Origin: an uncultured Acidobacteriota bacterium
GTDB taxonomy: Bacteria; Acidobacteriota; Vicinamibacteria; Vicinamibacterales; Fen-181
Reading direction: 5' to 3'
NCBI GenBank assembly: GCA_963741715.1
Contig: CAVUJA010000002.1
Location: forward strand, 136,883-200,882
DNA length: 64,000 bases
Positions within the stretch are counted from its first letter, which is position 1; each line of letters starts with the position of its first letter. Positions 1,513 to 43,100 of this stretch are shown piece after piece. The notes below the pieces were generated by a model that saw only the letters and a program-made list of their open reading frames with translations, searched no databases and had not been told where the DNA came from. The position numbers and the translations under genes are program-made.

Positions 1513-2565
1513 TTATTTCACCAGGTACTGGAAGACGGCCTGCAGGTTGTCGTCGGGCGACGTGACCTCGGCAATCTCGCCCGCTTCGCCCGTCGCCGCC
1601 AGTTCGGTCAGCCGCGCGTAGAACCCGTCGGGCGCCGCCGTCTGCACCACCACCGCCCCCTCCTCGAACTTCAGGCTGATCACATCGTCGTGGGCGAGGA
1701 ACCGGCGGGCCAGGCCGCGCGTGTCGGCCGCGCGGATGAAGACGGTGTGCGGGTGCGTGTCGATGAGGTCGCGGATCTGGTGGACGTTGCCCTCGGCCAG
1801 GATCCGCCCGTTGTTGATCAGGAGGATGTTGGACGTCATCGACTCGATCTCGTGCAGGATGTGGCTCGAGACGATGACCGTCTTGCCGGCGCGCGCCCAG
1901 TCCTTGATCAGGCGGATCGTCTTGCGGCGGCCGAGCGGGTCCATGCCCGCCAGCGGCTCGTCGAGGATCAGCAGCTCGGGGTCGTGGACGATCGCCTGCG
2001 CCAGCTTCACGCGCTGGCGCATCCCCTTGCTGTAGCCGCCGATCTTCTTGTCGGCGGCGGCCAGCAGGTCCACCGTGTCGAGCGCGCGGCGCGCCGCCTC
2101 GGTGGATTCCCGTTCCGAGTAGCCATTGAGGCGAACCAGCGCGGCCACCCACTCGAGGCCCGTCATCCGGTCGTAGAAGGCGTCCTGGTCCGGACAGAAT
2201 CCCACGCGGAAGTAGATCGCCGGGTTCGACCAGATCGGCTCGCCGAGCACCTTGATCGTCCCCTTGCTCGGCTTGAGCTGCCCGGTCATCAGCTTCATGA
2301 AGGTGGACTTCCCGGCGCCGTTCGGCCCGAGGAGGCCGGTGACGCCAGGGGGCACGCTCACCGACACGTCGTTCAGGCCGATCACCTGGCCGTACCACTT
2401 CGACAGCTTGACCGCTTCGATGGCCGGGGCGAGGCTCGCCGAAGAGCTCGTGCCGCCCTCGCCCACACGGGCCTGCTCCGCGGTGGCGCTCTCGAGTTCG
2501 TCGGCGCGAAGGTGGGCCGGCCCCGCCGTAGCGCTCGCAGTGTCGTCGGCGCGAAGGTGCGTCAC
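1513..2565 (-). CDS. ABC transporter ATP-binding protein
   Basis: Walker A GPNGAGKST, signature YSKGMRQR, Walker B LLILDEP, H-loop SSHIL. The 656-aa track ORF 1513..3483 is a read-through artefact; its N-terminal part overlaps the real permease gene in another frame. GTG at 2565 overlaps the permease stop (GTGA), so the start is inferred. Confidence 0.85.
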   Translation of the reverse strand: MTHLRADDTASATAGPAHLRADELESATAEQARVGEGGTSSSASLAPAIEAVKLSKWYGQVIGLNDVSVSVPPGVTGLLGPNGAGKSTFMKLMTGQLKPSKGTIKVLGEPIWSNPAIYFRVGFCPDQDAFYDRMTGLEWVAALVRLNGYSERESTEAARRALDTVDLLAAADKKIGGYSKGMRQRVKLAQAIVHDPELLILDEPLAGMDPLGRRKTIRLIKDWARAGKTVIVSSHILHEIESMTSNILLINNGRILAEGNVHQIRDLIDTHPHTVFIRAADTRGLARRFLAHDDVISLKFEEGAVVVQTAAPDGFYARLTELAATGEAGEIAEVTSPDDNLQAVFQYLVK

Positions 2566-3401
2566 GACACCACCTCCACCCCGCGCACGCGGCGTTCGAG
2601 GACCCACAGCGAGACGCCGATCACCACGACCATCGCCAGCAGCGAGACGGCGGCCGGCGTGGAGTAGCGCGGCTCGAGGCGGAAGATGATGTCCCCAATC
2701 TGGTTGAGGTTGCCGGGCAGCGACAGCCACGACATCTTCGTGCTGCCGGTGACCGCGTAGATCACCCCGAAGACGGCGTGGCTGAACCAGTAGGCGCCCG
2801 CGTAGAGGATGGCGACGTAGCGGCTGCTCTTGCTGAGCGAGGAGAGCGCCAGCATCGTGAACGCCGCCAGCAGCACCTGCAGGAAGGAGAAGACGGTGAC
2901 CGCCGGGAACAGGTAGAAGTTCTGCCGCAGGAACGTGAAGCTGCCGCTGAACGCGACCTGCAGGACCAGCAGGAGGATGGCCGGCACCCAGGTGACCAGC
3001 AGCAGGAACGCGGCGAGGATCACCAGCTTGCCGGCGATGTACTCGGTGCGGGTGAGCGGCTTCGACAGGTAGATCTGCAGCGCGTTGGCGCGCTTGTCGT
3101 TGGCGATCAGGCCGGCGCCCACCCAGACGGTGATGGTGAAGACGAAGAAGTCCTGCGTGCCCAGGAACTCGCGGAACCGCTGGGCGGTCATCGACAGCAG
3201 CGTGAACTGCGGGAAGTTGGCGTTCAGGTAGACCATCACCGCGCCGACGACGAACGGGATCCACGCGAGGACCAGCAGGCCGAGGAACAGCCGCTTGCGG
3301 ACGATGGTGCGGATGCCGTTGACGGCAATCACCATCCACGCCTGCCCGGCCTGTGCCCGCAGCCCCGCGTATCGCCGGTAGGATTGGTCGTGTATCGGCA
3401 T
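2562..3401 (-). CDS. ABC-type transporter permease / polytopic membrane protein
   Basis: 279-aa ORF MPIHDQSYRRYAG... with about 6 hydrophobic helices, sandwiched between two ABC ATPase genes on the same strand. Confidence 0.7.
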   Translation of the reverse strand: MPIHDQSYRRYAGLRAQAGQAWMVIAVNGIRTIVRKRLFLGLLVLAWIPFVVGAVMVYLNANFPQFTLLSMTAQRFREFLGTQDFFVFTITVWVGAGLIANDKRANALQIYLSKPLTRTEYIAGKLVILAAFLLLVTWVPAILLLVLQVAFSGSFTFLRQNFYLFPAVTVFSFLQVLLAAFTMLALSSLSKSSRYVAILYAGAYWFSHAVFGVIYAVTGSTKMSWLSLPGNLNQIGDIIFRLEPRYSTPAAVSLLAMVVVIGVSLWVLERRVRGVEVVS

Positions 3402-3473
3402 CTACTGCATCTCCGACGGCTTGCGGCCTGCGGCCTGCGGCCGGCGGCACGGTCGCCTTCGGCTCGCGATCCT

Positions 3474-3618
3474 CACTAGCCACTACCCACTACCCACTAC
3501 CACTAGCCACTAGCCACTAACCACTAGCCACTAACCACTAGCCACTACCTACTAGCCACTACGCACTAGCCACTAGCCACTACGCACTAGCCACTAGCCA
3601 CTAGCCACCAGCCACTAC
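3474..3618. repeat. tandem heptamer array (CCACTAG)n, about 20 units
   Basis: Read directly: cactagc cactacc cactacc ... ccactag ccactag ccaccag ccactac. It fills the gap between the stop of the ATPase gene (3615-3617) and the region upstream of the permease start (3401). Period 7 puts TAG/TAA in all frames on both strands. Confidence 0.95.
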
Positions 3619-4559
3619 TCTTCCCCAACTGCCTTGGCGAACACGTCCTCGAGCGTGGGCACGCTCGGGCGGAGGTGGCGAACCTGCACCTTCTCCCGGT
3701 CGGCCATCGCGAACAGCGTGCGGGCGCCCTCGTCCGGCCCCACGAGCACGCGCAGGACTTCATCGTCCGTCTCGTGGCACTCGAACCCGGCGGCGGCGAG
3801 CGTGGCGGTAAAGGCCTGGCGGTCGCCCTTGATGCGCAGCTCGAACACCTGCTTGCGCGTGCCCTTCAGCGTGTCGATCGGCCCCTGCGCCACCACCTGG
3901 CCCTTGTCCAGCACGACGACGTTGGTGCAGGTGTATTCGACGTCGGGCAGGAGGTGCGAGGAGAGGATCAGGTTGATCTGCTTCTCGTACGCGAGGTCGC
4001 GCACCAGGTCGAGCATCTCGTCGCGGCCCTTGGGGTCCATCCCGTTGGTCGGCTCGTCGAGGAACAGCAGGTCGGGGTCGTGGACGAGCGCCTGCGCGAG
4101 CTTGATGCGCTGCTTCATCCCGGTCGAATAGGTTTCGAGGTTGCGGTAGCGCGCCTCGCCCAGGCCGACGTAGTAGAGCACCTCGTGCGCGCGCTGCATC
4201 GCGTCGCTGGCCGGCAGGCCCGCGAGCTGGCCGCAGTAGGCGACGAACGACACCGCGTTCATGCCCGGGATGTGGCCGTCGGTCTCGGGCATGTACCCGA
4301 TGCGCCGGCGGATGTCGAGGGGGGATTTGGCGACATCGAGGCCGAAGACGCTCATGCGGCCGGAGGTGGGCACCAGGAAGCCGAGCAGCGACTTGAGCAT
4401 CGTGCTCTTGCCGGCGCCGTTGGGCCCCAGCAGGCCGGTGGCCCCGCCGTGGAACGCCGCGGTGACGTCGCGGAGCGCGGCGCTTTTTCCGTAGGCGACG
4501 CTGACCGCCTCGAGGGCAACGACGGGGGTGGTGTCCGGCTCGGCCATCTCACTGTCCAA
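3615..4559 (-). CDS. ABC transporter ATP-binding protein
   Basis: Walker A GPNGAGKST, signature YSTGMKQR, Walker B LLFLDEP, H-loop SSHLL; 314 aa. Confidence 0.9.
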   Translation of the reverse strand: MDSEMAEPDTTPVVALEAVSVAYGKSAALRDVTAAFHGGATGLLGPNGAGKSTMLKSLLGFLVPTSGRMSVFGLDVAKSPLDIRRRIGYMPETDGHIPGMNAVSFVAYCGQLAGLPASDAMQRAHEVLYYVGLGEARYRNLETYSTGMKQRIKLAQALVHDPDLLFLDEPTNGMDPKGRDEMLDLVRDLAYEKQINLILSSHLLPDVEYTCTNVVVLDKGQVVAQGPIDTLKGTRKQVFELRIKGDRQAFTATLAAAGFECHETDDEVLRVLVGPDEGARTLFAMADREKVQVRHLRPSVPTLEDVFAKAVGEE

Positions 4560-4586: not shown

Positions 4587-4624
4587 CACTGCCTGCCTAC
4601 TGCCGACTGCCGACTGCCTACTAC
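4587..4624. repeat. tandem heptamer array (TGCCGAC/TGCCTAC)n, about 5 units
   Basis: cactgcc tgcctac tgccgac tgccgac tgcctac tac. It overlaps the stop codon (4621-4623) of the HD-domain gene. Confidence 0.85.
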
Positions 4625-5193
4625 AACGATCCCTTCAGCCCCAGCGCCTCGGCCTGCTCGCGCATGCCGGCAATCACGTTGGCGATGTGCTCGGCCAGCG
4701 GCAGCCCCAGTTCCTCGGCGCCCTTCTTGAGGTCTTCGCGGCTGACGGCGCGCGCGAAGGCCTTGTCCTTCATCCGCTTGACGACCGAGGAGGCCTCGAG
4801 GTCGAGGACGCTCTTCGACGGCCGGACGAGGGAGGCGGCGGTGACGAAGCCGGCCATCTCGTCGCAGGCGAACAGCGTGTGCTCCAGCCGGGTGTCGCGC
4901 GGCGTGTTCGTGTGGTCGGCGTGGGACAGGACGGCCTTCACCACGAACTCGGGGTAGCCGTGCTCGCGCAGGAAGTCGGCGCCCCGGAACGGGTGGTTCT
5001 CGAGGGTCGGGTAGCGCTCGTAGTCGAAGTCGTGGAGCAGCGCCACGGCGCCCCATTCCTCCTCGTTCTCGCCGAACTTCCGCGCGTAGAAGCGGACGGC
5101 CGCCTCGACGGCGAGCGCGTGCTTCCGCAACGCGTCGCTCTGGGTCCACTCGCACAGCAACGACCAGGCCGATTCACGTGACAGCATGGACAT
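4621..5193 (-). CDS. HD-domain metal-dependent phosphohydrolase
   Basis: 190 aa. HD-superfamily signature residues (ALLHDFDY ... LSHADH) in a short all-helical protein. Confidence 0.8.
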   Translation of the reverse strand: MSMLSRESAWSLLCEWTQSDALRKHALAVEAAVRFYARKFGENEEEWGAVALLHDFDYERYPTLENHPFRGADFLREHGYPEFVVKAVLSHADHTNTPRDTRLEHTLFACDEMAGFVTAASLVRPSKSVLDLEASSVVKRMKDKAFARAVSREDLKKGAEELGLPLAEHIANVIAGMREQAEALGLKGSL

Positions 5194-5235
5194 AGGATTC
5201 AGGATTCAGGAGTCGGGATTCGGGATTCAGTTCAG
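5194..5235. repeat. tandem heptamer array (AGGATTC/AGGAGTC/GGGATTC)n, 6 units
   Basis: aggattc aggattc aggagtc gggattc gggattc agttcag. It begins at the nucleotide next to the ATG (5193) of the HD gene. Confidence 0.9.
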
Positions 5236-8640: not shown

Positions 8641-10002
8641 CTACCCGTGGCGGTCGCGCGGGGCCTCAACTCGGTCCGGACCGAGTTCGATGGGATCTCG
8701 GCCCGCGCCGATCACCGGCCCGAAGAACCGCTCCACTTCGTGGGCGTTGTGCCGGCGGCAGCGTAGCGAGATGTTCGCGACCGTCGCCGCGCCACCCATC
8801 GCAAATGGCACCTCGTGGTGGTACTCCAGGAATCCGCGCTCGGGGCAGCGGCCCGCCACGCCCACGAACGCGCACTGCCCGCCGTCCCGTTCCCACACCG
8901 CGCGCTTCACCTTCGACGGGATGCGGCGCGAACGAAGAGGCGGTGCTCCGGCCGTGACCCCGTCACTCGGGTGCCGCGTCGCCACAAGTGAAGGCCTGGC
9001 GCGAATCGCGGTGTCGGTTGCGAAGGTCGCTGACGGAGCCCCCGCTCGACCTGCACCGGCGCCTGCGTCTGCCCGACGGAATGGTGGCGCGACGTTCGAG
9101 TCGCCTGTCCGCTTCCGATCGCGCTGCTCGGTCGGCTGCTTCCTGGTTCGCTCCTTCCGCGCGGCGAACTTCGCCCGCTCCAGGTCCGCCACGAGCAGCG
9201 TCAGCGCACGATCGAAGATGAGCGCCAGATCACCGTTGGGCACCACGTGCCGCAGCAGGTCCTGCGCGTGCCTCAACTTGGCATGCGTTTGCGCGGACAC
9301 GGTCACCTGCACGTGGTAACGCTCAGGCGCGAGAGCTCGGACCGTCGCCGGTCGAGCGCCGAGCGCAGGCGGCACCCTAAGCAGCGCGGCGCCCATGCCC
9401 TGCCCGTTGTCCAGGAGCGGCGCGGCCTCCAGTCCCGGTTGCACGTGGGCGGGTGCGGCACCCGGTTCGACGATGGCGGCTGCAGGTGGCGGCGCTTCGC
9501 TCGCCCGCGCGCTGCCGCTCGTCCCTGCGGTGTCGGCCGCCGTCGCCACCCGCGGCCCGGGCACCTTCCGGATGGACGGTCGAACGTCGGAGCGCGGCCT
9601 CAGGCGCGCCGCCAGCTCCTCGACCGCGCGCTTGCCGAGGTGCCTGGCCGCCGCCAGGACGTCACGATGGTTCTCCTCGGTCAGGTGCGGTCGCAGCAGG
9701 CCGACCGTGGTCAGCGTCAGCGCGCCCTCCTCGAGCAGTCCGAGAATCACCGGGAACCGGCGCGTTGCCAGGGCGGCCTCGATGCGGAGATACGCGGCGT
9801 GCTCCGAGAGGTGCAGACACATGGTGCAGTACGCGAAGAGGGACGGGAGACCCTCGGGCAGGTAGAGCCGACGCTGGTCCAACTCGACGAGCGAGGCGAT
9901 GAGGTCGGCCGTGGCGCCGCGTTCGCGGTGTGCCAACCGCACGACTTCGGCGACCAGGGCCCCATCGGACAACCGAGCGAATTCCGAAGTGTTCATGGCC
10001 AT
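8641..10002 (-). CDS. HNH endonuclease with DUF222-like N-terminal domain
   Basis: C-terminal HNH module CAFVGVAGRCPERGFLEYHHEVPFAMGGAATVANISLRCRRHN. Helical N-terminal region (LVELDQRRLYLPEG...SLFAYC). Start at ATG 10002 or 9996 (MAMNTSEF). The last ~15 codons read through the palindromic repeat. Confidence 0.75.
   Translation of the reverse strand: MAMNTSEFARLSDGALVAEVVRLAHRERGATADLIASLVELDQRRLYLPEGLPSLFAYCTMCLHLSEHAAYLRIEAALATRRFPVILGLLEEGALTLTTVGLLRPHLTEENHRDVLAAARHLGKRAVEELAARLRPRSDVRPSIRKVPGPRVATAADTAGTSGSARASEAPPPAAAIVEPGAAPAHVQPGLEAAPLLDNGQGMGAALLRVPPALGARPATVRALAPERYHVQVTVSAQTHAKLRHAQDLLRHVVPNGDLALIFDRALTLLVADLERAKFAARKERTRKQPTEQRDRKRTGDSNVAPPFRRADAGAGAGRAGAPSATFATDTAIRARPSLVATRHPSDGVTAGAPPLRSRRIPSKVKRAVWERDGGQCAFVGVAGRCPERGFLEYHHEVPFAMGGAATVANISLRCRRHNAHEVERFFGPVIGAGRDPIELGPDRVEAPRDRHG
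8656..8687. repeat. 32-nt repeat CGCGCGGGGCCTCAACTCGGTCCGGACCGAGT containing the 18-bp palindrome (copy 2)
   Basis: Near-identical direct copy at 10465-10496. Together they bracket the HNH gene. Confidence 0.9.
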
Positions 10003-10464
10003 GGACACAATATAGGCGGCCACTTTCGGGCCCACGCCGTTGGCGCCTCCCGCCCGATTGCACGCCACGATGACGCCGATGCCGACCCGCGACCCGATCG
10101 CCTCCGCACGCTCAACGTCGTCCGCGTCTCCGCTGTTCTGACGGGCGGTCCCGCCCCTGCGCCGGTCACCGTCCGGAAGCTGTCAAGCCCCAGAGCACAT
10201 ATATTTCGGGCGCGGCTGTCGCGGAGAGGCTGGAAGGTCCAAAGCGTGGTTGGTGTCGGAGCTGTTTTCGGAGCAACGTGACCTGGCCGGGTTTCCGACG
10301 CAAAAGACCTGCGATTCCGCAATCCTGTTGAAAACCCTGCACCGCTTCTCCGGGCAGAAACTGCGTCGCGCCGACGGATGTCGAAAAAACAGCTCCGACG
10401 TGAATTGTCCCGCCTTGGAACCGTCCGACCGCGCGCGAGTGCCGCCTGGCTGCGAGTGACGACC

Positions 10465-10519: not shown

Positions 10520-11671
10520 CTACAGCTTCAGCGCCGCGTCCGCGTTGAGGCTCCAGTCGGCGGTAACGCCCGCGCGGTAGCGGCGCAGGCCGGCGGCGGC
10601 GATCATCGCCGCGTTGTCGGTCGAGAGGGCAAGCGTCGGGAGGAAGACGGGCAGGCTCAGCTCCGCGCCGCGGGCCGCGGCGTCCTCGCGCAGCCGGCTG
10701 TTGGCCGACACGCCGCCCGCGATCCCCACGCTCTTCGCGCCGTGGCGCCAGGCGGCCTCGAACAGCCGATCGACGAGCGTCTCGACGACCACGCGCTGGA
10801 AGCTGGCGCAGATGTCGGCGATCTCGGCGGGCGTGAACGGTGCGGGCGCCGCATCCGCCCCCGTCCCCTGTCCCTCGTGCCTCGCCCCTCGTCCCCCGTC
10901 CCTCGTCCCTCGTCCCTCGTTCCCTGTCCCTCGCCCCTCGTCCCCAATTCCTCGGCCCTTGACGTACCGCGAAACCGCCGTCTTGATCCCGCTGAAGCTG
11001 AAGTCCAGCCGGCCGGCGAGGTCGGGCGCGTTGCGATCGCGGTGCGTGATGCGCGTCATGGGAAACGCCACCGCGCGGTCGTTGCCCTCGCGCGCCAGCT
11101 TGTCGATGATCGGCCCGCCCGGGTAGCCCAGCCCCAACAGCTTCGCCACCTTGTCGTACGCCTCGCCCGCCGCATCGTCCCGGGTGCGCGCGATCAGCCG
11201 ATAGACGCCAGCTTCCGGAACGAGATACAGGCTCGTGTGGCCGCCCGAAACGACGAGGACGACCGACGGAAGAGGAAGCGGGCCGTTGTGGAGGAAGAGC
11301 GACTCGATGTGGCCCGCGAGGTGGTGCACGGGGACGAGCGGCTTGCCGATGGACGCCGCAAACGACTTCGCGAACTGCAGGCCCACCAGCAGCGAGCCAA
11401 CCAGCCCAGGCCCCTGCGTCACCGCGACCGCGTCGATCCCCCGCGCGTCGATCCCGGCATCGAGCAGCGCCTTCTCGACGACCCCGCAGATGTCGCGGAC
11501 GTGCTGCCGCGACGCGAGTTCCGGAACCACGCCGCCCCACTCGCGGTGGATGTCCACCTGGGACGCGACCACGCTCGAGCGGATCTGCCACGGACGCGCC
11601 GCGTCATCGACTTCGGCCACCACGGCGGCGGCCGTTTCGTCGCACGAGCTCTCGATTCCCAGGATCTGCAT
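10520..11671 (-). CDS. tsaD: tRNA N6-adenosine threonylcarbamoyltransferase TsaD, with a repeat-encoded ~33-aa insertion
   Basis: Kae1/TsaD motifs GIESSCDET, HHLAGH, VSGGHTSL, DFSFSGIKTAV, GGVSANSRL, STDNAAMIA. 383 aa, about 40 longer than usual, because of GRGIGDEGRGTGNEGRGTRDGGRGARHEGQGTG. Confidence 0.92.
   Translation of the reverse strand: MQILGIESSCDETAAAVVAEVDDAARPWQIRSSVVASQVDIHREWGGVVPELASRQHVRDICGVVEKALLDAGIDARGIDAVAVTQGPGLVGSLLVGLQFAKSFAASIGKPLVPVHHLAGHIESLFLHNGPLPLPSVVLVVSGGHTSLYLVPEAGVYRLIARTRDDAAGEAYDKVAKLLGLGYPGGPIIDKLAREGNDRAVAFPMTRITHRDRNAPDLAGRLDFSFSGIKTAVSRYVKGRGIGDEGRGTGNEGRGTRDGGRGARHEGQGTGADAAPAPFTPAEIADICASFQRVVVETLVDRLFEAAWRHGAKSVGIAGGVSANSRLREDAAARGAELSLPVFLPTLALSTDNAAMIAAAGLRRYRAGVTADWSLNADAALKL
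10858..10955. repeat. tandem heptamer array (CCCTCGT)n, about 14 units, inside the tsaD coding sequence
   Basis: cccccgt cccctgt ccctcgt gcctcgc ccctcgt cccccgt ccctcgt ccctcgt ccctcgt tccctgt ccctcgc ccctcgt ccccaat tcctcgg. On the coding strand this is (ACGAGGG)n and is stop-free in every frame. Confidence 0.95.
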
Positions 11672-12806: not shown

Positions 12807-12821
12807 AGGGTGCGATCATAC

Positions 12822-12917
12822 AGGATTCAGGAGTCAGGATTCGGGATTCGGGACGGCGCAGACCCGCCGAATCCCACCTGGATCCCACTGACTCCCGACT
12901 CCCGGCTCCTGAATCCT
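12822..12917. repeat. inverted pair of heptamer arrays (AGGATTC-type arm and its complement) forming a hairpin
   Basis: Left arm aggattc aggagtc aggattc gggattc ggga (12822-12852). Right arm cgaatcc ...ctgactcc cgactcc cggctcc tgaatcc t (12868-12917). About 15-nt loop. Sits between the mtnA start (12806) and the cdd stop (12923). Confidence 0.9.
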
Positions 12918-13527: not shown

Positions 13528-14586
13528 TCACAGGACGCCTGGATGGGGCGCCTCGATGTCGGTGAATCGCACCATCCGTTGCTGCGCCTCGTCCCACAGC
13601 CGCAGGCGGACCAGGCGCAGGCTTCCGCGGAGCGTCAGCGGCGGAACCTCGTGGAACGCCGGCACGCGGTCCTGGCACTGCTGCAGGGCGTAGCTCGGAA
13701 TGCGCGGCTGGACGTGATGGATGTGGTGCAGGCCGATGCTGCCGGTGAACCACTGCAGCACCTTCGGCAGCTTGTAGTACGAACTGCCGGCCAGGGCCGC
13801 GCGCCACGGGTTCCACGCCTCGTGCCGGCTCCAATAGACGTCGTCGAACTGGTGCTGCACGTAGAACAGCCAGATCCCGGCCGCGCCGCCGAGCAGTCCA
13901 ACGGGCGCCGCCAGCAGGACGAAGTTTCGGAAGCCGAACGCCAGCACCGCCCCGGCGAGTAGGGCCGCGGCGCCCGCGTTGGTGAAATGCACGCTGAATC
14001 GCTCGCGGCGGCTCGCGTGTCGCGGGCAGAACCGGTGCTGGATGACAAAGACGAACACGGGACCGATGGCGAACATCACCAGCGGATTCCGGAAGGCTCG
14101 ATAGAAAAACCGCTGCAGGCGCGACGCCGCCAGGTACTCCTTGACCGTCAGCGTCCACACGTCGCCGACCCCGCGCCGGTCCAGGTCGCCGACGGTCGCG
14201 TGGTGCCGGACGTGCGCGCGCTGCCACCGCTCGAACGGGGTGAGGGTCAGCAGGCCCGTGATGTAGCCGACCACACGGTTGGCCCGGGCCGACGGAAACA
14301 GCGAGCCGTGACAGCAGTCGTGAAAGAGGATGAAGACCCTCACGGTCAGGCCGGCGGCGAGGACCGTCAGCCCGAGGGCCGCGGCCGGATGTCTGCGGAC
14401 CAGCCAGGCCATCGCCGCCCAGACGGCGACGTACGGGACGAGGGTTTCGATCAGTTGCCAGGTTGCGCGCCGCGTATCGGCTCGCGCGAACGCCGCAACC
14501 GCCGGGTACCAGTCGGGCCTCGCCCGGACGGGTGCCGCGCCCTCGTCGGCCGCCGAAATCGTCATCGGTGCCGTGGCTTCTTCCAT
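13528..14586 (-). CDS. membrane fatty-acid desaturase
   Basis: Three histidine boxes HDCCH, HVRHH, HHIHH, plus hydrophobic helices. The start is placed at ATG 14586 (MEEATAP...); the longer track ORF adds 69 unlikely codons. Confidence 0.85.
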   Translation of the reverse strand: MEEATAPMTISAADEGAAPVRARPDWYPAVAAFARADTRRATWQLIETLVPYVAVWAAMAWLVRRHPAAALGLTVLAAGLTVRVFILFHDCCHGSLFPSARANRVVGYITGLLTLTPFERWQRAHVRHHATVGDLDRRGVGDVWTLTVKEYLAASRLQRFFYRAFRNPLVMFAIGPVFVFVIQHRFCPRHASRRERFSVHFTNAGAAALLAGAVLAFGFRNFVLLAAPVGLLGGAAGIWLFYVQHQFDDVYWSRHEAWNPWRAALAGSSYYKLPKVLQWFTGSIGLHHIHHVQPRIPSYALQQCQDRVPAFHEVPPLTLRGSLRLVRLRLWDEAQQRMVRFTDIEAPHPGVL

Positions 14587-14832
14587 GTCCGGAAATCCCG
14601 CCGGGCCCCTGGGCGCCAACGTCCGCCGGCTGGGAAAGGGACCCTGACGTGTCCATTTTGACTGGCCGCCGGGGCGCTCGCTGTTCACAATTGGACAGCC
14701 CGAAAAGGTGACTGCTGCCGAATCGGAAGACGTCCGCGGCGCCGCCTTAGCGCAAGGCAACGAACGTCCTGTGCGGCCGAGCTCGAAATACACTGTCGGC
14801 GCGGGCGGTGGTGGCCAGTACCGCAGTTCCGA

Positions 14833-15670: not shown

Positions 15671-16008
15671 GATAACTGGATAACTGAAGAACTGGATAAC
15701 TGGATAACTGGATAACTGGATAACTGGATAACTGAACTGGATAACTGAAGAACTGGAGAGCTGGGGAACTGAGTGACGGCACAACTGCGCAATTGCGTGA
15801 CCGCGCAACTGCACAACTGACGCCGCTGCAGTACCGCGTGGCAGAACAGTTGGCGCGCGACTTGCCCCAGTTACCCGGTTGTCCAGTTGCCCAGTTACCC
15901 AGTTGCCCAGTTGCCCAGTCCTCCAGTCTCCCAGTTGCCCAGTTATCCAGTTGCCCAGTTGCCCAGTTGCCCAGTTGCCCAGTTTCCCAGTTCTCCAGTT
16001 CTCGAGTT
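15671..16008. repeat. inverted pair of octamer arrays: (GATAACTG-like)x19 then (CAGTTGCC-like)x20
   Basis: Left arm 15671-15819, unit NNNAACTG. 27-nt spacer. Right arm 15847-16008, unit CAGTTNNC. The arms are mutually complementary. The right arm abuts the nupC stop (16007-16009), and the left arm ends 17 nt before the PNP start. Confidence 0.95.
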
Positions 16009-19121: not shown

Positions 19122-19137
19122 AAGGGCGAAGTATACG

Positions 19138-19221
19138 TCAGGATTCAGGAGTCAGGATTCGGGAGTCAGGAGCAGCACGATTCAGGAGTCAGGATTCAGG
19201 AGTCAGGATTCGGGAGTCAGT
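19138..19221. repeat. tandem heptamer array (AGGATTC/AGGAGTC/GGGAGTC)n, about 11 units
   Basis: tcaggattc aggagtc aggattc gggagtc aggagca gcacgattc aggagtc aggattc aggagtc aggattc gggagtc ag. Starts 17 nt from the deoA ATG. Confidence 0.95.
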
Positions 19222-24618: not shown

Positions 24619-26823
24619 ATGGTAGAGACCCCCTCGACACCGCTTTCGCCCGAGGCCGCCACGCGGCTGATGGCGTTTGCGCGCGCGTGCAAGGGTGCCG
24701 CGCGGGCGGTCGCGCTCTACCCGCCCGAGCACCCGGCCATCGGCGAGGCCCTGCAGCGCCTGGCCGCCGCCGCCGAGGCCGCCACCGCCTCGGGCCCGCT
24801 CTCGGTCGTCGTCCTCCCCGACAACCTGCTGGTGGGCGGCCGCGTCGCCGCCCGCCCCGACGCCGGCCTGGCCGAACTGGCCGCGCTGCTGCACGACCAC
24901 ATGGTCGCCGAGATCACGGTCCAGCCGGACGTCGAGGAACCGGCCTGGCGGACGTTCCTGGAACTGCTCGGCCGCGACCCGGTGCACCTGCGCGCGCACG
25001 GCGGCATCGCCCGCGCGCTGACCACCGCCGGCGGCGTGGGCATCGAGATCACCGAACTGGACTACTCGGGCCTCATCAAGGACCGCGACTCGGGCTGGCT
25101 GGCCACGTGGGACTCGATCATCGCCCACTGCCTGCAGAAGGACTCGCTGGACCTCGACGACGAGACGCTGCGGCTGCTGGGCGAAATCGCCCGCGACCCC
25201 TCCCGCCTCGCCGACTTCTTCGAGCGCACGGAGGACCACCCCGGCGGGCACAGCATCCCCGAGCTGGCCGCGGCGCTGCTGCGCGCGCTGCGCGACATCG
25301 CCGACTACATCGGCCGCCAGGAGCCGGCGCGCCTGCCGACGATCTTCGACAACATGGCGTCGGCCATCTCGCGATTGTCGCCCGACTTCGTGATGGAGCT
25401 GGTGGAGGAGGGTCAGGACGACGCCAGCGATCACGCGAAACTGATCAAGGAGATCACCAGCCGCGTCACCGAGACGACCATCGCCCAGTTCATCGCCCGC
25501 TCCGTCGCGCGCGAACGCGCGTGCACCGCGCGGCTCGCCGACGCGTTCCGCGCCCTCGCCGCCACCCCGGCCCGGCAGGAAGCCGCCGTCAGCCTGGCGC
25601 ACCAGGAACTGGCCACGTCGCCGATGGGCGAGGAGGCGAGCTTCCCGCGCCTGTGGAACACCGTGGAGCGCATCCTCCTCTCCTACTCCGACAAGGACTG
25701 GGTGTCGGACACCTACAACCGCGAGCTCTCGTCCGCGCAGGCCCGCGCCGGCGACTCCGAGCACCTCTTCGACGACCCTCCCGAGCGCGTCGTCGGGTGG
25801 TTGACGACGGTGAGCGACGCCGCGATCAGGAGCTGGGACCTGCAGCTGCTGGCCGACCTGCTCGTCCTCGAGACGGATGCCGGCAACCGCGAGGAGCTGC
25901 TGCAGCTGGTGTCGGGCCAGGTGGAGGAACTGGTCATCCTCGGCGACTTCGAGGGCGCGCGGAAGCTCGTGGAATCGCTGATCGCCTTCGGCGACCAGGC
26001 GACGTCGCCCGGGGTGCAGGCGCAGCTGGCGCGGGCGCTGGACCAGATCGTCGCGGGCCCGTTCATGTCGCACGCGGCGGTCCACCTCAACGCGGTGCGC
26101 GACGACGAGTTCGAGCAGGTGAAGGCGCTGTTCGCGGCGCTCGGGCCGGGCCTGGTGCCGAAGCTGGCCGACACGCTGGTGACCGAGGCGCGCGCCCGGG
26201 CGCGGCAGCGGCTCACCGAGCTGTTCATGATGTTCGGCGAGCACGGCAAGAGCTCGGTGGACCAGCTGCGCCAATCGCCCAACCCCAGCGTCCGCCGCAC
26301 GGCGGTGCAGCTGCTGCGGTCGTTCGGCGGCCCCGAGTCGCTGCCGGATCTCGAGATCCTCGTGAACGACCCCGAGCCCGCGGTGCAGCGCGAGGCCGCC
26401 CGGGCGTTGATCGGCTTCGGCTTCGACGAGTCGTTCGATCTGCTCACGCGGATGCTGCGCAACAACAAGCTCCAGGGCCGGAAGGCGCTGATCGAGGAGC
26501 TGGTCTCGACGCACGATCACAAGACCGGGCCGCTGTTCTGCCACCTGGTTCGACACCTGGCGTGCACCGGGCCCGCACGCGAGGTCTACCTCCGGTCGAT
26601 CGGCCGGCTCGGGCTGCTCGGCGGCCCCGAGGCCGTGGCGGCGCTCGCCGAGGTGCTGCGGAAGGGACAGTGGTGGGCGCCGATGCGGACGCGCGAGGTG
26701 CGGGCGGAAGCGGCGGCGGCGCTGGCGCAGATCAAGCTGCCCGAGGCGCGCGAGGCGCTGCGCGACGCGGCCGAGAACGGCACGTTCGGCGTTCGCGCGG
26801 CGGCGCGGCGGTTCATTAAGTAG
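24619..26823 (+). CDS. large HEAT-repeat protein with an N-terminal module shared with the adjacent HD-GYP protein
   Basis: 734 aa from ATG 24619. C-terminal HEAT/armadillo-like repeats (NPSVRRTAVQLLRSFGG, DPEPAVQREAARALIGFG, ...ALAEVLRKG, ...AAAALAQIK, ...VRAAARRF). The N-terminus (AVALYPPEHPAI) parallels QLYAPGHPLV of the next gene. Confidence 0.75.
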   Translation: MVETPSTPLSPEAATRLMAFARACKGAARAVALYPPEHPAIGEALQRLAAAAEAATASGPLSVVVLPDNLLVGGRVAARPDAGLAELAALLHDHMVAEITVQPDVEEPAWRTFLELLGRDPVHLRAHGGIARALTTAGGVGIEITELDYSGLIKDRDSGWLATWDSIIAHCLQKDSLDLDDETLRLLGEIARDPSRLADFFERTEDHPGGHSIPELAAALLRALRDIADYIGRQEPARLPTIFDNMASAISRLSPDFVMELVEEGQDDASDHAKLIKEITSRVTETTIAQFIARSVARERACTARLADAFRALAATPARQEAAVSLAHQELATSPMGEEASFPRLWNTVERILLSYSDKDWVSDTYNRELSSAQARAGDSEHLFDDPPERVVGWLTTVSDAAIRSWDLQLLADLLVLETDAGNREELLQLVSGQVEELVILGDFEGARKLVESLIAFGDQATSPGVQAQLARALDQIVAGPFMSHAAVHLNAVRDDEFEQVKALFAALGPGLVPKLADTLVTEARARARQRLTELFMMFGEHGKSSVDQLRQSPNPSVRRTAVQLLRSFGGPESLPDLEILVNDPEPAVQREAARALIGFGFDESFDLLTRMLRNNKLQGRKALIEELVSTHDHKTGPLFCHLVRHLACTGPAREVYLRSIGRLGLLGGPEAVAALAEVLRKGQWWAPMRTREVRAEAAAALAQIKLPEAREALRDAAENGTFGVRAAARRFIK

Positions 26824-26851
26824 GATTCGGGAGTCGGGATTCGGGATTCAG
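26822..26851. repeat. tandem heptamer array (AGGATTC/GGGAGTC/GGGATTC), 4 units
   Basis: aggattc gggagtc gggattc gggattc ag. Starts inside the TAG stop (26821-26823) of the HEAT gene. Confidence 0.9.
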
Positions 26852-28334: not shown

Positions 28335-28383
28335 AGGGATCGGGGATCAGGGATCGGGGATCGGGGATCAGGGATCAGGGACT
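28335..28383. repeat. tandem heptamer array (RGGGATC)n, 7 units
   Basis: agggatc ggggatc agggatc ggggatc ggggatc agggatc agggact. Starts 9 nt after the HD-GYP stop. Confidence 0.95.
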
Positions 28384-36890: not shown

Positions 36891-36925
36891 AGGACTCTCG
36901 ACTCTCGACTCGTGACTCTTGACAG
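36891..36925. repeat. tandem heptamer array (TCGACTC-type), 5 units, upstream flank of vapC
   Basis: aggactc tcgactc tcgactc gtgactc ttgacag. Ends 9 nt before ATG 36935. Confidence 0.9.
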
Positions 36926-36934
36926 CCAGGTGGG

Positions 36935-37303
36935 ATGCTCAATCTTGACACCCACGTCCTGGTCGCGCTCCTCGAGGGCTCGCTGAAGCCCGCCGAGGAG
37001 GCGCTGGTCGCCGACGAGGAACTGGCGATCTCGGACATCGTGCTCTGGGAGCTGGCGAAGCTCGTCCAACTCGGCCGGCTCGAGATGGATCTCGACAGCC
37101 CGGCCTTCCGGCGCGCGCTCGACCACATCACCGTCGTCCCGATGTCGGCGGACATCGCCAGCCTGAGCACCCAGCTGGATTTCAAGTCCGACCCGGCAGC
37201 CGAACTCATCGCCGCCACCAGCCTGTCCGCCGGCATGCCGCTCCTCACCAGGGACCGGCGCATCCTGCGCTCCAAGGTCGTTCCCTTCGCCCGGCGCGCT
37301 TGA
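36935..37303 (+). CDS. vapC: PIN-domain ribonuclease toxin (VapC family), no adjacent antitoxin gene
   Basis: MLNLDTHVLVALL..., ISDIVLWELAKL, ...DPAAELIAATSLSAGMPLLTRDRRI: the acidic residues and layout of a PIN/VapC protein. 122 aa. Confidence 0.85.
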   Translation: MLNLDTHVLVALLEGSLKPAEEALVADEELAISDIVLWELAKLVQLGRLEMDLDSPAFRRALDHITVVPMSADIASLSTQLDFKSDPAAELIAATSLSAGMPLLTRDRRILRSKVVPFARRA

Positions 37304-37404
37304 CGCTCGACTCTCGACTCCTGACCCTCGACTCCAGACTCTTGACTGTTGACTCTGGGCTGTTGACTCCGGACTCTTGACTCTTGACTCTCGACTCTTG
37401 GTGT
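37300..37404. repeat. tandem heptamer array (TCGACTC/TTGACTC)n, 15 units, downstream flank of vapC
   Basis: ttgacgc tcgactc tcgactc ctgaccc tcgactc cagactc ttgactg ttgactc tgggctg ttgactc cggactc ttgactc ttgactc tcgactc ttggtgt. The first unit contains the vapC TGA stop. Confidence 0.95.
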
Positions 37405-43054: not shown

Positions 43055-43100
43055 TAGGATTCGGGAGTCAGGATTCGGGAGTCAGTAGGATTCGGGATTG
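43055..43100. repeat. tandem heptamer array (AGGATTC/GGGAGTC), about 6 units
   Basis: taggattc gggagtc aggattc gggagtc agtaggattc gggattg. Starts 3 nt after the epsI stop. It is the last array seen in the window. Confidence 0.9.

Follow-up and report, generated by a model that had tools for sequence, protein, structure and literature searches.

A heptanucleotide repeat array translated within tsaD of a Vicinamibacterales bacterium probably grew in place in a permissive loop next to the tRNA D-stem helix

Tandem arrays of seven-nucleotide units are over-represented among the simple sequence repeats (SSRs) of some bacteria, as exemplified by the heptameric short tandemly repeated repetitive (STRR) sequences of cyanobacteria and the TAACTGA arrays of Beggiatoaceae (PMC4679880). 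G-rich arrays of GGGAATC and GGGGA(C/T)T units occur in Xanthomonas and Nostoc (PMC4692102). Published descriptions place the heptamer arrays between genes and note their under-representation in coding sequences (PMC4679880, PMC4692102). The tandem repeats of Borgs create intrinsically disordered protein regions (PMC9879509). Here, a heptamer array is described that lies inside tsaD, the gene for the threonylcarbamoyl-transferase subunit that acts in the formation of N6-threonylcarbamoyladenosine in tRNA (t6A37), in a 64,000-nucleotide stretch of DNA (contig CAVUJA010000002.1, positions 136,883 to 200,882) from an uncultured soil bacterium of the Acidobacteriota, order Vicinamibacterales. The whole stretch is referred to as the window. 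The array is probably a lineage-specific heptanucleotide SSR that grew in place in a permissive loop of TsaD and encodes a neutral, disordered segment that is filtered only for its reading frame; we assign this reading a probability of about 0.7. In a search of the literature, neither heptamer arrays of Acidobacteria or Vicinamibacter nor repeat arrays in tsaD were found to be reported, and nothing relevant emerged on in-frame 7-bp repeats in essential genes.

The array at positions 10858-10955 of the minus strand consists of exactly 14 units with the consensus ACGAGGG on the coding strand, in agreement with the approximately 14 units noticed in a preliminary description of this DNA. Read in register from 10955 to 10858, the units are CCGAGGA, ATTGGGG, ACGAGGG, GCGAGGG, ACAGGGA, ACGAGGG, ACGAGGG, ACGAGGG, ACGGGGG, ACGAGGG, GCGAGGC, ACGAGGG, ACAGGGG, and ACGGGGG. 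Six of the 14 units are perfect, and the core of three perfect units in a row is the most slippage-prone part of the array. Tandem Repeats Finder (TRF) detects a period-7 array at 10858-10945 with 12.6 copies and 77% matches; the scores at the tsaD array range from 78 to 129, and nested periods of 14, 21, and 28 nt outscore the period of 7. A 21-nt probe composed of three units has seven overlapping matches in the window, all of them at the tsaD array, and none in 100 dinucleotide shuffles. Similarly, the window contains five period-7 blocks of at least 42 nt versus none in 20 first-order Markov-random windows. The multi-copy, head-to-tail organization is that of the heptanucleotide long SSR (LSSR) and STRR-like class and lies far above chance; however, the intergenic placement typical of the described LSSR families is not shared, as the tsaD array is wholly within the coding sequence.

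The heptamer arrays of the window resemble those of LSSR families in their head-to-tail 7-nt units, in the number of arrays per genome, in the small repertoire of units, in their position mostly in spacers near gene ends, and in the G3N4 unit that fits a G-quadruplex motif. The commonest intergenic unit of the window, GGGATTC/GGGAGTC, is similar to GGGAATC of Xanthomonas (PMC4692102). Unlike in the LSSR papers, which contain no in-frame analysis, a 14-unit array is here translated as part of a conserved housekeeping enzyme, and one loop is affected throughout a clade. The likeness to the repeats of Borgs lies in tandem amplification inside open reading frames (ORFs), which gives rise to new disordered low-complexity segments rapidly and independently in related genomes. 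The units of Borg repeats located in ORFs are near-perfect and have lengths divisible by three. By contrast, the tsaD unit is 7 nt long, the period of the peptide is 7 residues (21 nt), and two thirds of all copy-number changes are frameshifts.

Residues 239-271, which are encoded by the array, form the part from GRGIGDE to GQGTG of the translation ...FSFSGIKTAVSRYVK GRGIGDE GRGTGNE GRGTRDG GRGARHE GQGTG ADAAPAPFTPAEIADICASFQ..., in agreement with that quoted previously. The sequence (GGGACGA)n is translated to GRGTRDE whichever frame is used, so that three 7-nt units generate the 7-residue super-period that had been recognized in the preliminary description. The array is in frame and is flanked by the FSFSGIKT motif on one side and the EIADICASFQ helix on the other, as also described there; its length of 98 nt is no multiple of three.

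Orthologs of tsaD without an array contain a one-unit seed of the repeat. The bare loops of the related loci L163 and L169 have the codons AAG TCG CGC GGG ACA CCC GAT (K-S-R-G-T-P-D) and CGG GCG AGG GGG ACG GAC (R-A-R-G-T-D), respectively, which amount to approximately one array unit at the position where every array begins. Furthermore, the 5' edge of the array matches the ancestral K-G-R-G codons in all relatives. No ACGAGGG-type array was found outside tsaD in the window or in 168 loci with a total length of ~1.0 Mb, of which ~65 kb is from close relatives. Because a one-unit seed is present in array-free orthologs and the unit is absent outside tsaD, growth in place is favored for ACGAGGG over the insertion, or invasion, that had been proposed initially. 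Replication slippage or unequal exchange would have expanded ancestral codons of the loop, for K-G/A-R-G-T-D (e.g. GCGAGGGGGACGGAC) at the C-terminus of helix α7, into the array.

The variation among relatives has the form expected of a repeat that changes its copy number. The orthologous site contains ~1 unit in L163 and L169, five units in L162, six in L081, six and three in L164, and 14 in the window. In the best 120 homologs, which are 67-85% identical to the window TsaD, 110 loops could be delimited; their lengths range from 16 to 106 residues with a median of 37, and a 7-residue (lag-7) period is dominant in 25 of them. In the ortholog alignment that had been suggested as a check, close relatives have array-free loops of 16-21 residues. 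At least five different heptamer units, as well as hairpins similar to repetitive extragenic palindromic (REP) sequences, occupy the loop across relatives (Table 1). In more distant Vicinamibacterales and in other phyla, the loop is 18-26 residues long. Since the distant loops are short and the loops of the clade carry varied arrays, the site is a clade-specific hotspot and not a one-off.

The lengths of related loops reveal how the reading frame is maintained. Loops of homologs P0011, P0008, and P0066 have 21, 28, and 35 residues, those of P0042 and P0022 have 23 and 30, and those of P0039 and P0005 have 20 and 27; the extra piece in these exact 7-residue steps is GDEGRG(T/A/P). The steps are established at the protein level. 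They correspond to 21 nt and thus to the rule, put forward in the preliminary description, that units may be gained or lost in multiples of three only. However, the rule does not hold for the array as such, which has 98 nt, and the window loop exceeds that of L163 by 99 nt and the L162 loop exceeds it by 27 nt. Therefore, the frame is kept by the loop as a whole rather than by threes of units. Except for truncations at contig ends, all 120 homologs maintain the reading frame across the loop.

Selection against stop codons would have a narrower role than was first assumed. The unit ACGAGGG is stop-free in all six frames, as had been stated, although only the coding strand matters for this property. 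Its supposed uniqueness in the window was rejected: AATCCCG (26823), ACTCTCG (36891), ACGCTCG (37297), AGGCCGC, CCCGCGG, and the 8-mer AACTGGGC are stop-free as well. Accordingly, the idea that selection let only this array persist inside a gene fails in its strict form, whereas a weaker form fits the distribution of ACTAGCC. No frame of this unit, the commonest of the long intergenic ones, is free of stops, and tsaD loops contain no more than one or two copies of it or else its stop-free variant GGCCAGT.

The growth in place of the tsaD array can be placed in the following scheme. A Vicinamibacterales-like sub-lineage of Acidobacteriota would produce heptamer arrays throughout its genome, in nearly every intergenic spacer, and arrays within genes would normally be removed. 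In the α7-α8 loop of TsaD, arrays may persist for two reasons: almost any loop length would be tolerated, and the unit is stop-free, with all three frames encoding the Gly-rich, charge-balanced, and putatively disordered peptide GRGTRDE. The sole effect of selection would be to filter the loop as a whole for reading frame, which would leave the 7-residue (21-nt) steps among relatives. The repeat peptide most likely has no function of its own and is a tolerated, neutral by-product.

Several units from the tsaD loops of relatives are also present between genes. GGCTCAG (canonical form AGCCCTG) is intergenic in L162 and within tsaD in L168; GTGGCTA (ACTAGCC) is found between genes at 3473-3617 of the window and in L162, and within tsaD in L167; and GCCCGAA (AAGCCCG) is intergenic in L168 and within tsaD in L166 and L167. 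Together with the REP-like hairpins that lie within the loop arrays of L164 and L167, and with a second site in TsaD, after residue 73-76, that has REP-like insertions in 37 of the 120 homologs, this would fit an array or founder copies that were copied into tsaD by the process that seeds the intergenic arrays, with the loop either hit repeatedly or serving as the place of survival. Such an origin may apply to the relatives with these units; it is nevertheless unlikely for the window array, for which the searched sequence offers no donor, and whose seed is present in array-free orthologs, one of them from the array-free block of L169; moreover, its 5' edge is formed by ancestral codons. The insertion of a dispersed element, such as a Rickettsia palindromic element (RPE), a REP sequence, or a miniature inverted-repeat transposable element (MITE), was ruled out, as the searched DNA contains no other ACGAGGG-type copy and the unit is no palindrome. 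According to what Ogata et al. are said to have described in 2000, RPEs are inserted in frame in protein genes. Like these elements, the array is by-product or selfish DNA that conserved, even essential, proteins accept in frame where their surface is permissive, and the insert is present or missing among relatives; however, RPEs represent a single longer palindromic element in dispersed copies, and the tsaD array is a local tandem without a palindrome. REP-like hairpins occupy the tsaD loop and the second TsaD site of relatives, but not the window gene.

Some considerations weigh against growth in place followed by neutral persistence. Slippage, like the neutrality of the insert, is a step that we infer. 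A rough neighbor-joining tree fits one old, short array with repeated losses and repeated gains alike. The intergenic units ACGGCTG, ACTGCCT, AATCCTG, and ACTAGCC recur across loci and genomes, and because such a small repertoire recurs, purely local de novo slippage is insufficient. The intergenic units found in the tsaD loops of relatives hint at a process of copying or targeting. The view was limited to 64 kb of the genome, which may contain other affected genes or a second tsaD. Finally, the insert adjoins the helix that reads the tRNA D-stem and may affect the binding of tRNA.

The ORF that hosts the array is a bona fide TsaD with an intact catalytic core, and its sequence predicts t6A activity. 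Its score in the TIGR03723 profile (NCBIfam) is 376.3 bits, compared with a cut-off of 296.1, and the match is split by the insert at residues 239/~283; the match to PF00814 has an E-value of 2e-87. The TsaD metal ligands, which are a His-x3-His motif and a C-terminal Asp, have been named in Thermotoga maritima (PMC13276492), and the window motifs VHHLAGH (H117, H121) and STD352NAAM align with T. maritima H109, H113, and D296. Residues H116, H117, H121, and D352 are invariant in 80 homologs. Decay to a pseudogene was ruled out by the score above the cut-off, the invariant ligands, and the intact frame; a second intact tsaD, which the preliminary description would have taken as a sign of decay, was not found in the window. 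The gene order PNP - cdd - IF-2B - tsaD, where cdd encodes cytidine deaminase and IF-2B is MtnA-like, is common to the window and its relatives. Therefore, the window tsaD is the orthologous locus.

The AlphaFold2 model, calculated with an alignment of 80 sequences, has a predicted local distance difference test (pLDDT) score of 85.1 and a predicted TM-score of 0.84; prediction from the single sequence gave a pLDDT of 36. The model has the two-domain ASKHA fold of solved TsaD, Kae1, and Qri7 structures, and its top Foldseek matches are 3zet_B, 8ifx_A, and 4ydu_A, with target-normalized TM-scores of 0.90-0.92 and E-values of ~1e-32. Where solved TsaD structures have ~6-7 residues, the window protein has ~45, in accordance with the ~40 additional residues estimated previously. 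Residues 240-280 are modeled as coil, with pLDDT below 50 for 243-272, between the confidently predicted helices 227-239 and 281-309. The low-complexity stretch encoded by the array is thus predicted to be disordered. The 40-residue insert has a net charge of 0, with Asp and Glu balancing Arg, and includes 14 Gly (35%) and 6 Arg, which makes it an almost ideal inert disordered linker.

The cryo-electron microscopy structure of the T. maritima TsaB2D-tRNA complex, from 2026, places helix α7 (A210-E223), which starts with F207SFSGLK213, along the tRNA D-stem (PMC13276492). The corresponding motif of the window TsaD is F224SFSGIK230. As α7 comprises residues 227-239 according to the alignment to T. 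maritima TsaD, the repeat peptide begins where the helix that reads the D-stem ends. The loop is variable, as had been proposed, and its position can now be specified further than that of a variable surface loop. The start of the insert 1-3 residues past α7, the presence of 6 Arg and 14 Gly in 40 residues, and the wide conservation of K-G-R-G at the end of α7 in the clade could reflect an adaptive extension, similar to RGG/RG peptides, that was selected for aiding the capture or discrimination of tRNA. Such an extension is distinctly improbable, as the insert has no net charge, the codon usage of the array is unadapted, and the length of the loop is unconstrained between 16 and 106 residues. 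In addition, relatives have quite different peptides at this position, or nothing. The peptides in their loops, including GSGLQAS, SGQWPVV, TADSRQR, and PSTRP..., are chemically unrelated, which argues against a selected peptide function.

The codon usage of the array is that of a DNA repeat. The G+C content of third codon positions is 0.70 in the array versus 0.92 in the remainder of tsaD, and all six Arg codons of the array are CGA or AGG, neither of which is among the other 25 Arg codons of the gene. Because of these two differences, the sequence points to a DNA-driven origin, in which the repeat and not adaptation set the codon usage. On the coding, or mRNA, strand, two non-overlapping G-quadruplex motifs, defined by at least four tracts of three or more G residues with spacings of 1-7 nt, are predicted at 10893-10916 and 10922-10945. 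With its G3N4 unit, the array conforms to the canonical quadruplex motif, of which the window has only 14 sites. Its predicted folding energy is -57.0 kcal/mol with quadruplexes allowed and -34.5 kcal/mol without. No defined hairpin was found in the array, whose ordinary minimum free energy fold of -34.5 kcal/mol is weak and irregular; it is a G-rich direct repeat on one strand. RNA quadruplexes are reportedly depleted among bacterial mRNAs, and, given this depletion, a run of quadruplex motifs inside a core gene stands out. It is quite unlikely that the α7-α8 loop, beyond being permissive, preferentially attracts or nucleates an active array-building process specific to the lineage, whose products, namely different peptides and quadruplex-prone mRNA beside the D-stem-reading helix, tune or switch t6A, with tsaD as a hypervariable locus on which selection of a diversifying or contingency type acts in the Vicinamibacterales of soil.

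Heptamer SSRs drive phase variation in other bacteria (PMC4692102, PMC12721329), and the tsaD array has a unit length not divisible by three, a core of three to five near-perfect units, and a tract without stops in any frame, so that shifted products would run on. In these respects it resembles a phase-variable frameshift tract that would toggle tsaD, t6A, and translational fidelity in a fraction of the population. The contingency loci of Haemophilus, Neisseria, and Helicobacter similarly have units in coding sequences with lengths not divisible by three, and slippage shifts their frame. However, their tracts are perfect, are usually located near the 5' end, and belong to surface, restriction-modification, or lipopolysaccharide genes, whereas the tsaD tract is degenerate (77% matches, with three consecutive perfect units) and located in the middle of the gene of a core tRNA-modification enzyme. 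A frameshift would remove the domain with the Asp metal ligand, the window has no second copy of tsaD, and there is no off-phase homolog among the 120. A contingency switch is therefore highly improbable. The essentiality of tsaD given in the preliminary description is an assumption for this bacterium; t6A is dispensable in some bacteria.

The window probably stems from an assembled metagenome, its TsaD is known in exactly this form from a single 2.17-Mb contig, and assemblies are prone to errors at tandem repeats. An error of assembly or polishing is, however, extremely improbable, because the frame is intact over 98 nt of repeat and because the unit recurs at these codons in L081, L162, and L164, whose sequences were assembled independently from other samples.

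The tsaD array belongs to a genome-wide population of heptamer arrays. The window contains 15 period-7 arrays. Per kb, the close clade has 0.34 arrays, the other Vicinamibacterales-like loci have 0.15, and the remaining loci have 0.058. The occurrence of arrays in tsaD correlates with this load: the syntenic 21-kb blocks of L162 and L168, both with tsaD arrays, have longer spacers and contain 10 and 11 arrays, respectively, and the syntenic 21-kb block of L169 has no heptamer array and a bare tsaD loop of 21 residues. In the window and in L162, L168, L164, and L081, for which gene calls were mapped, tsaD is the only gene with internal arrays. All other arrays of the window are intergenic or touch the ends of genes.

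Table 1. Positions and composition of features in the window and of tsaD loops in related loci
Feature	Positions in window	Strand	Description	Basis
tsaD coding sequence	10520..11671	-	383 aa, intact; t6A37 threonylcarbamoyl-transferase subunit	ORF, TIGR03723, PF00814
Heptamer array	10858..10955	-	14 units	TRF, probe, unit table
Array core	10900..10920	-	3 perfect ACGAGGG units in a row, 21 nt	unit table
Whole extra loop	10838..10957	-	residues 239-278, 40 aa	model; alignment gap to profile hidden Markov model (HMM) and PDB between residues 238 and 283
F224-K238 codons	10958..11002	-	conserved FSFSGIK motif and helix α7; T. maritima counterpart F207-E223 contacts tRNA D-stem	T. maritima alignment; model helix 227-239
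F277-Q292 codons	10796..10843	-	FTPAEIADICASFQ; conserved start of next helix, 3' boundary of variable loop	model helix 281-309
Window heptamer arrays	3473-3617, 4592-4624, 5193-5230, 12818-12854, 12888-12911, 19137-19220, 26823-26851, 28335-28382, 36891-36918, 37297-37400, 43056-43085			
L162 loop			5 units GGGACGA/GGGACGG at same codons as window array	
L081 loop			6 GGGACGA-type units, then CGATCGGG x3 and GCTCGAG x3	
L164 loop			6 GGGACGA-type units, nested hairpin-type element, 3 further units	
L165 loop			CAGCRGA x8	
L166 loop			GGCTYCN x4 and GCCCGRA x5	
L167 loop			GTGGCTA units, hairpin element, GAAGCCC units	
L168 loop			GGCTCAG units	
L163, L169 loops			bare, 21 aa	

The intergenic arrays fill many spacers of the window and often abut start or stop codons. 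Their commonest family is GGAKTCR (CAGGATT/CAGGAGT/CGGGATT), which is present in both orientations, and the longest array consists of 20 copies of CACTAGC. Two arrays have 8-nt units, GATAACTG (~11 copies, 15671-15771) and CCCAGTTG (~17 copies, 15866-16000); they are positioned in opposite orientations ~100 nt apart, in the spacer between PNP-like and nucleoside-transporter-like genes, and both contain AACTG/CAGTT. A tandem duplication of 45 nt (2469-2559, 2.0 copies, 85% matches) is located just downstream of the minus-strand gene 2562-3401. Locus L169, on a 7.0-Mb contig and with a TsaD 74% identical to that of the window, has much shorter spacers (0-161 nt) and a DDE transposase, and constitutes a natural array-free comparison genome with regard to the cause of the arrays.

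The hairpin-type elements in the loop arrays of L164 (within 3001-4200) and L167 (within 186-1379), such as TCCGCC...GGCGGA with the translations ALVRRGPEGEGG/LARRSSPTASEGGW, recall the small dispersed repeats within cyanobacterial heptamer arrays. The second insertion hotspot of TsaD, after residue 73-76 of the window protein (AGI|DARG|IDA; window ~11441-11455), accommodates up to 51 extra residues, in which translations such as RRPEGLRYLE and SRPAFDFAQAREGL recur. The inserts look like in-frame, REP-like palindromic elements, and the window gene has none at this site. Downstream of tsaD, a 475-residue ORF (8641-10068, minus strand) occupies the place of the YjbQ gene that follows tsaD in relatives; an HNH-like motif was recognized by eye near its C-terminus, and it has no Pfam match. 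Another difference from the gene order of relatives is the insertion of a fatty-acid-desaturase gene (13528-14832) that separates PNP from cdd.

Coding DNA, and core genes related to translation in particular, would be expected to lose repeats whose unit length is no multiple of three, and the tsaD array is translated in three frames. It provides a natural example of the dynamics of a DNA repeat generating a disordered protein segment from nothing, supported by the seed in array-free orthologs, the graded series of copy numbers, and the 7-residue steps that expose the frame filter. The acidobacterial sub-lineage with heptamer-filled spacers is a natural system for addressing why 7 nt would be a favored unit of slippage. 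The locus is also a warning that an unusual length of a marker gene such as tsaD can be real and that inserts split HMM matches. With a clade-wide hotspot beside a functional helix, this is a clear evolutionary case whose documentation is unusually good, even though the insert itself probably has no function: the TsaD loop is most likely a tolerated dumping ground for the runaway short repeats of the lineage, and not a new functional module.

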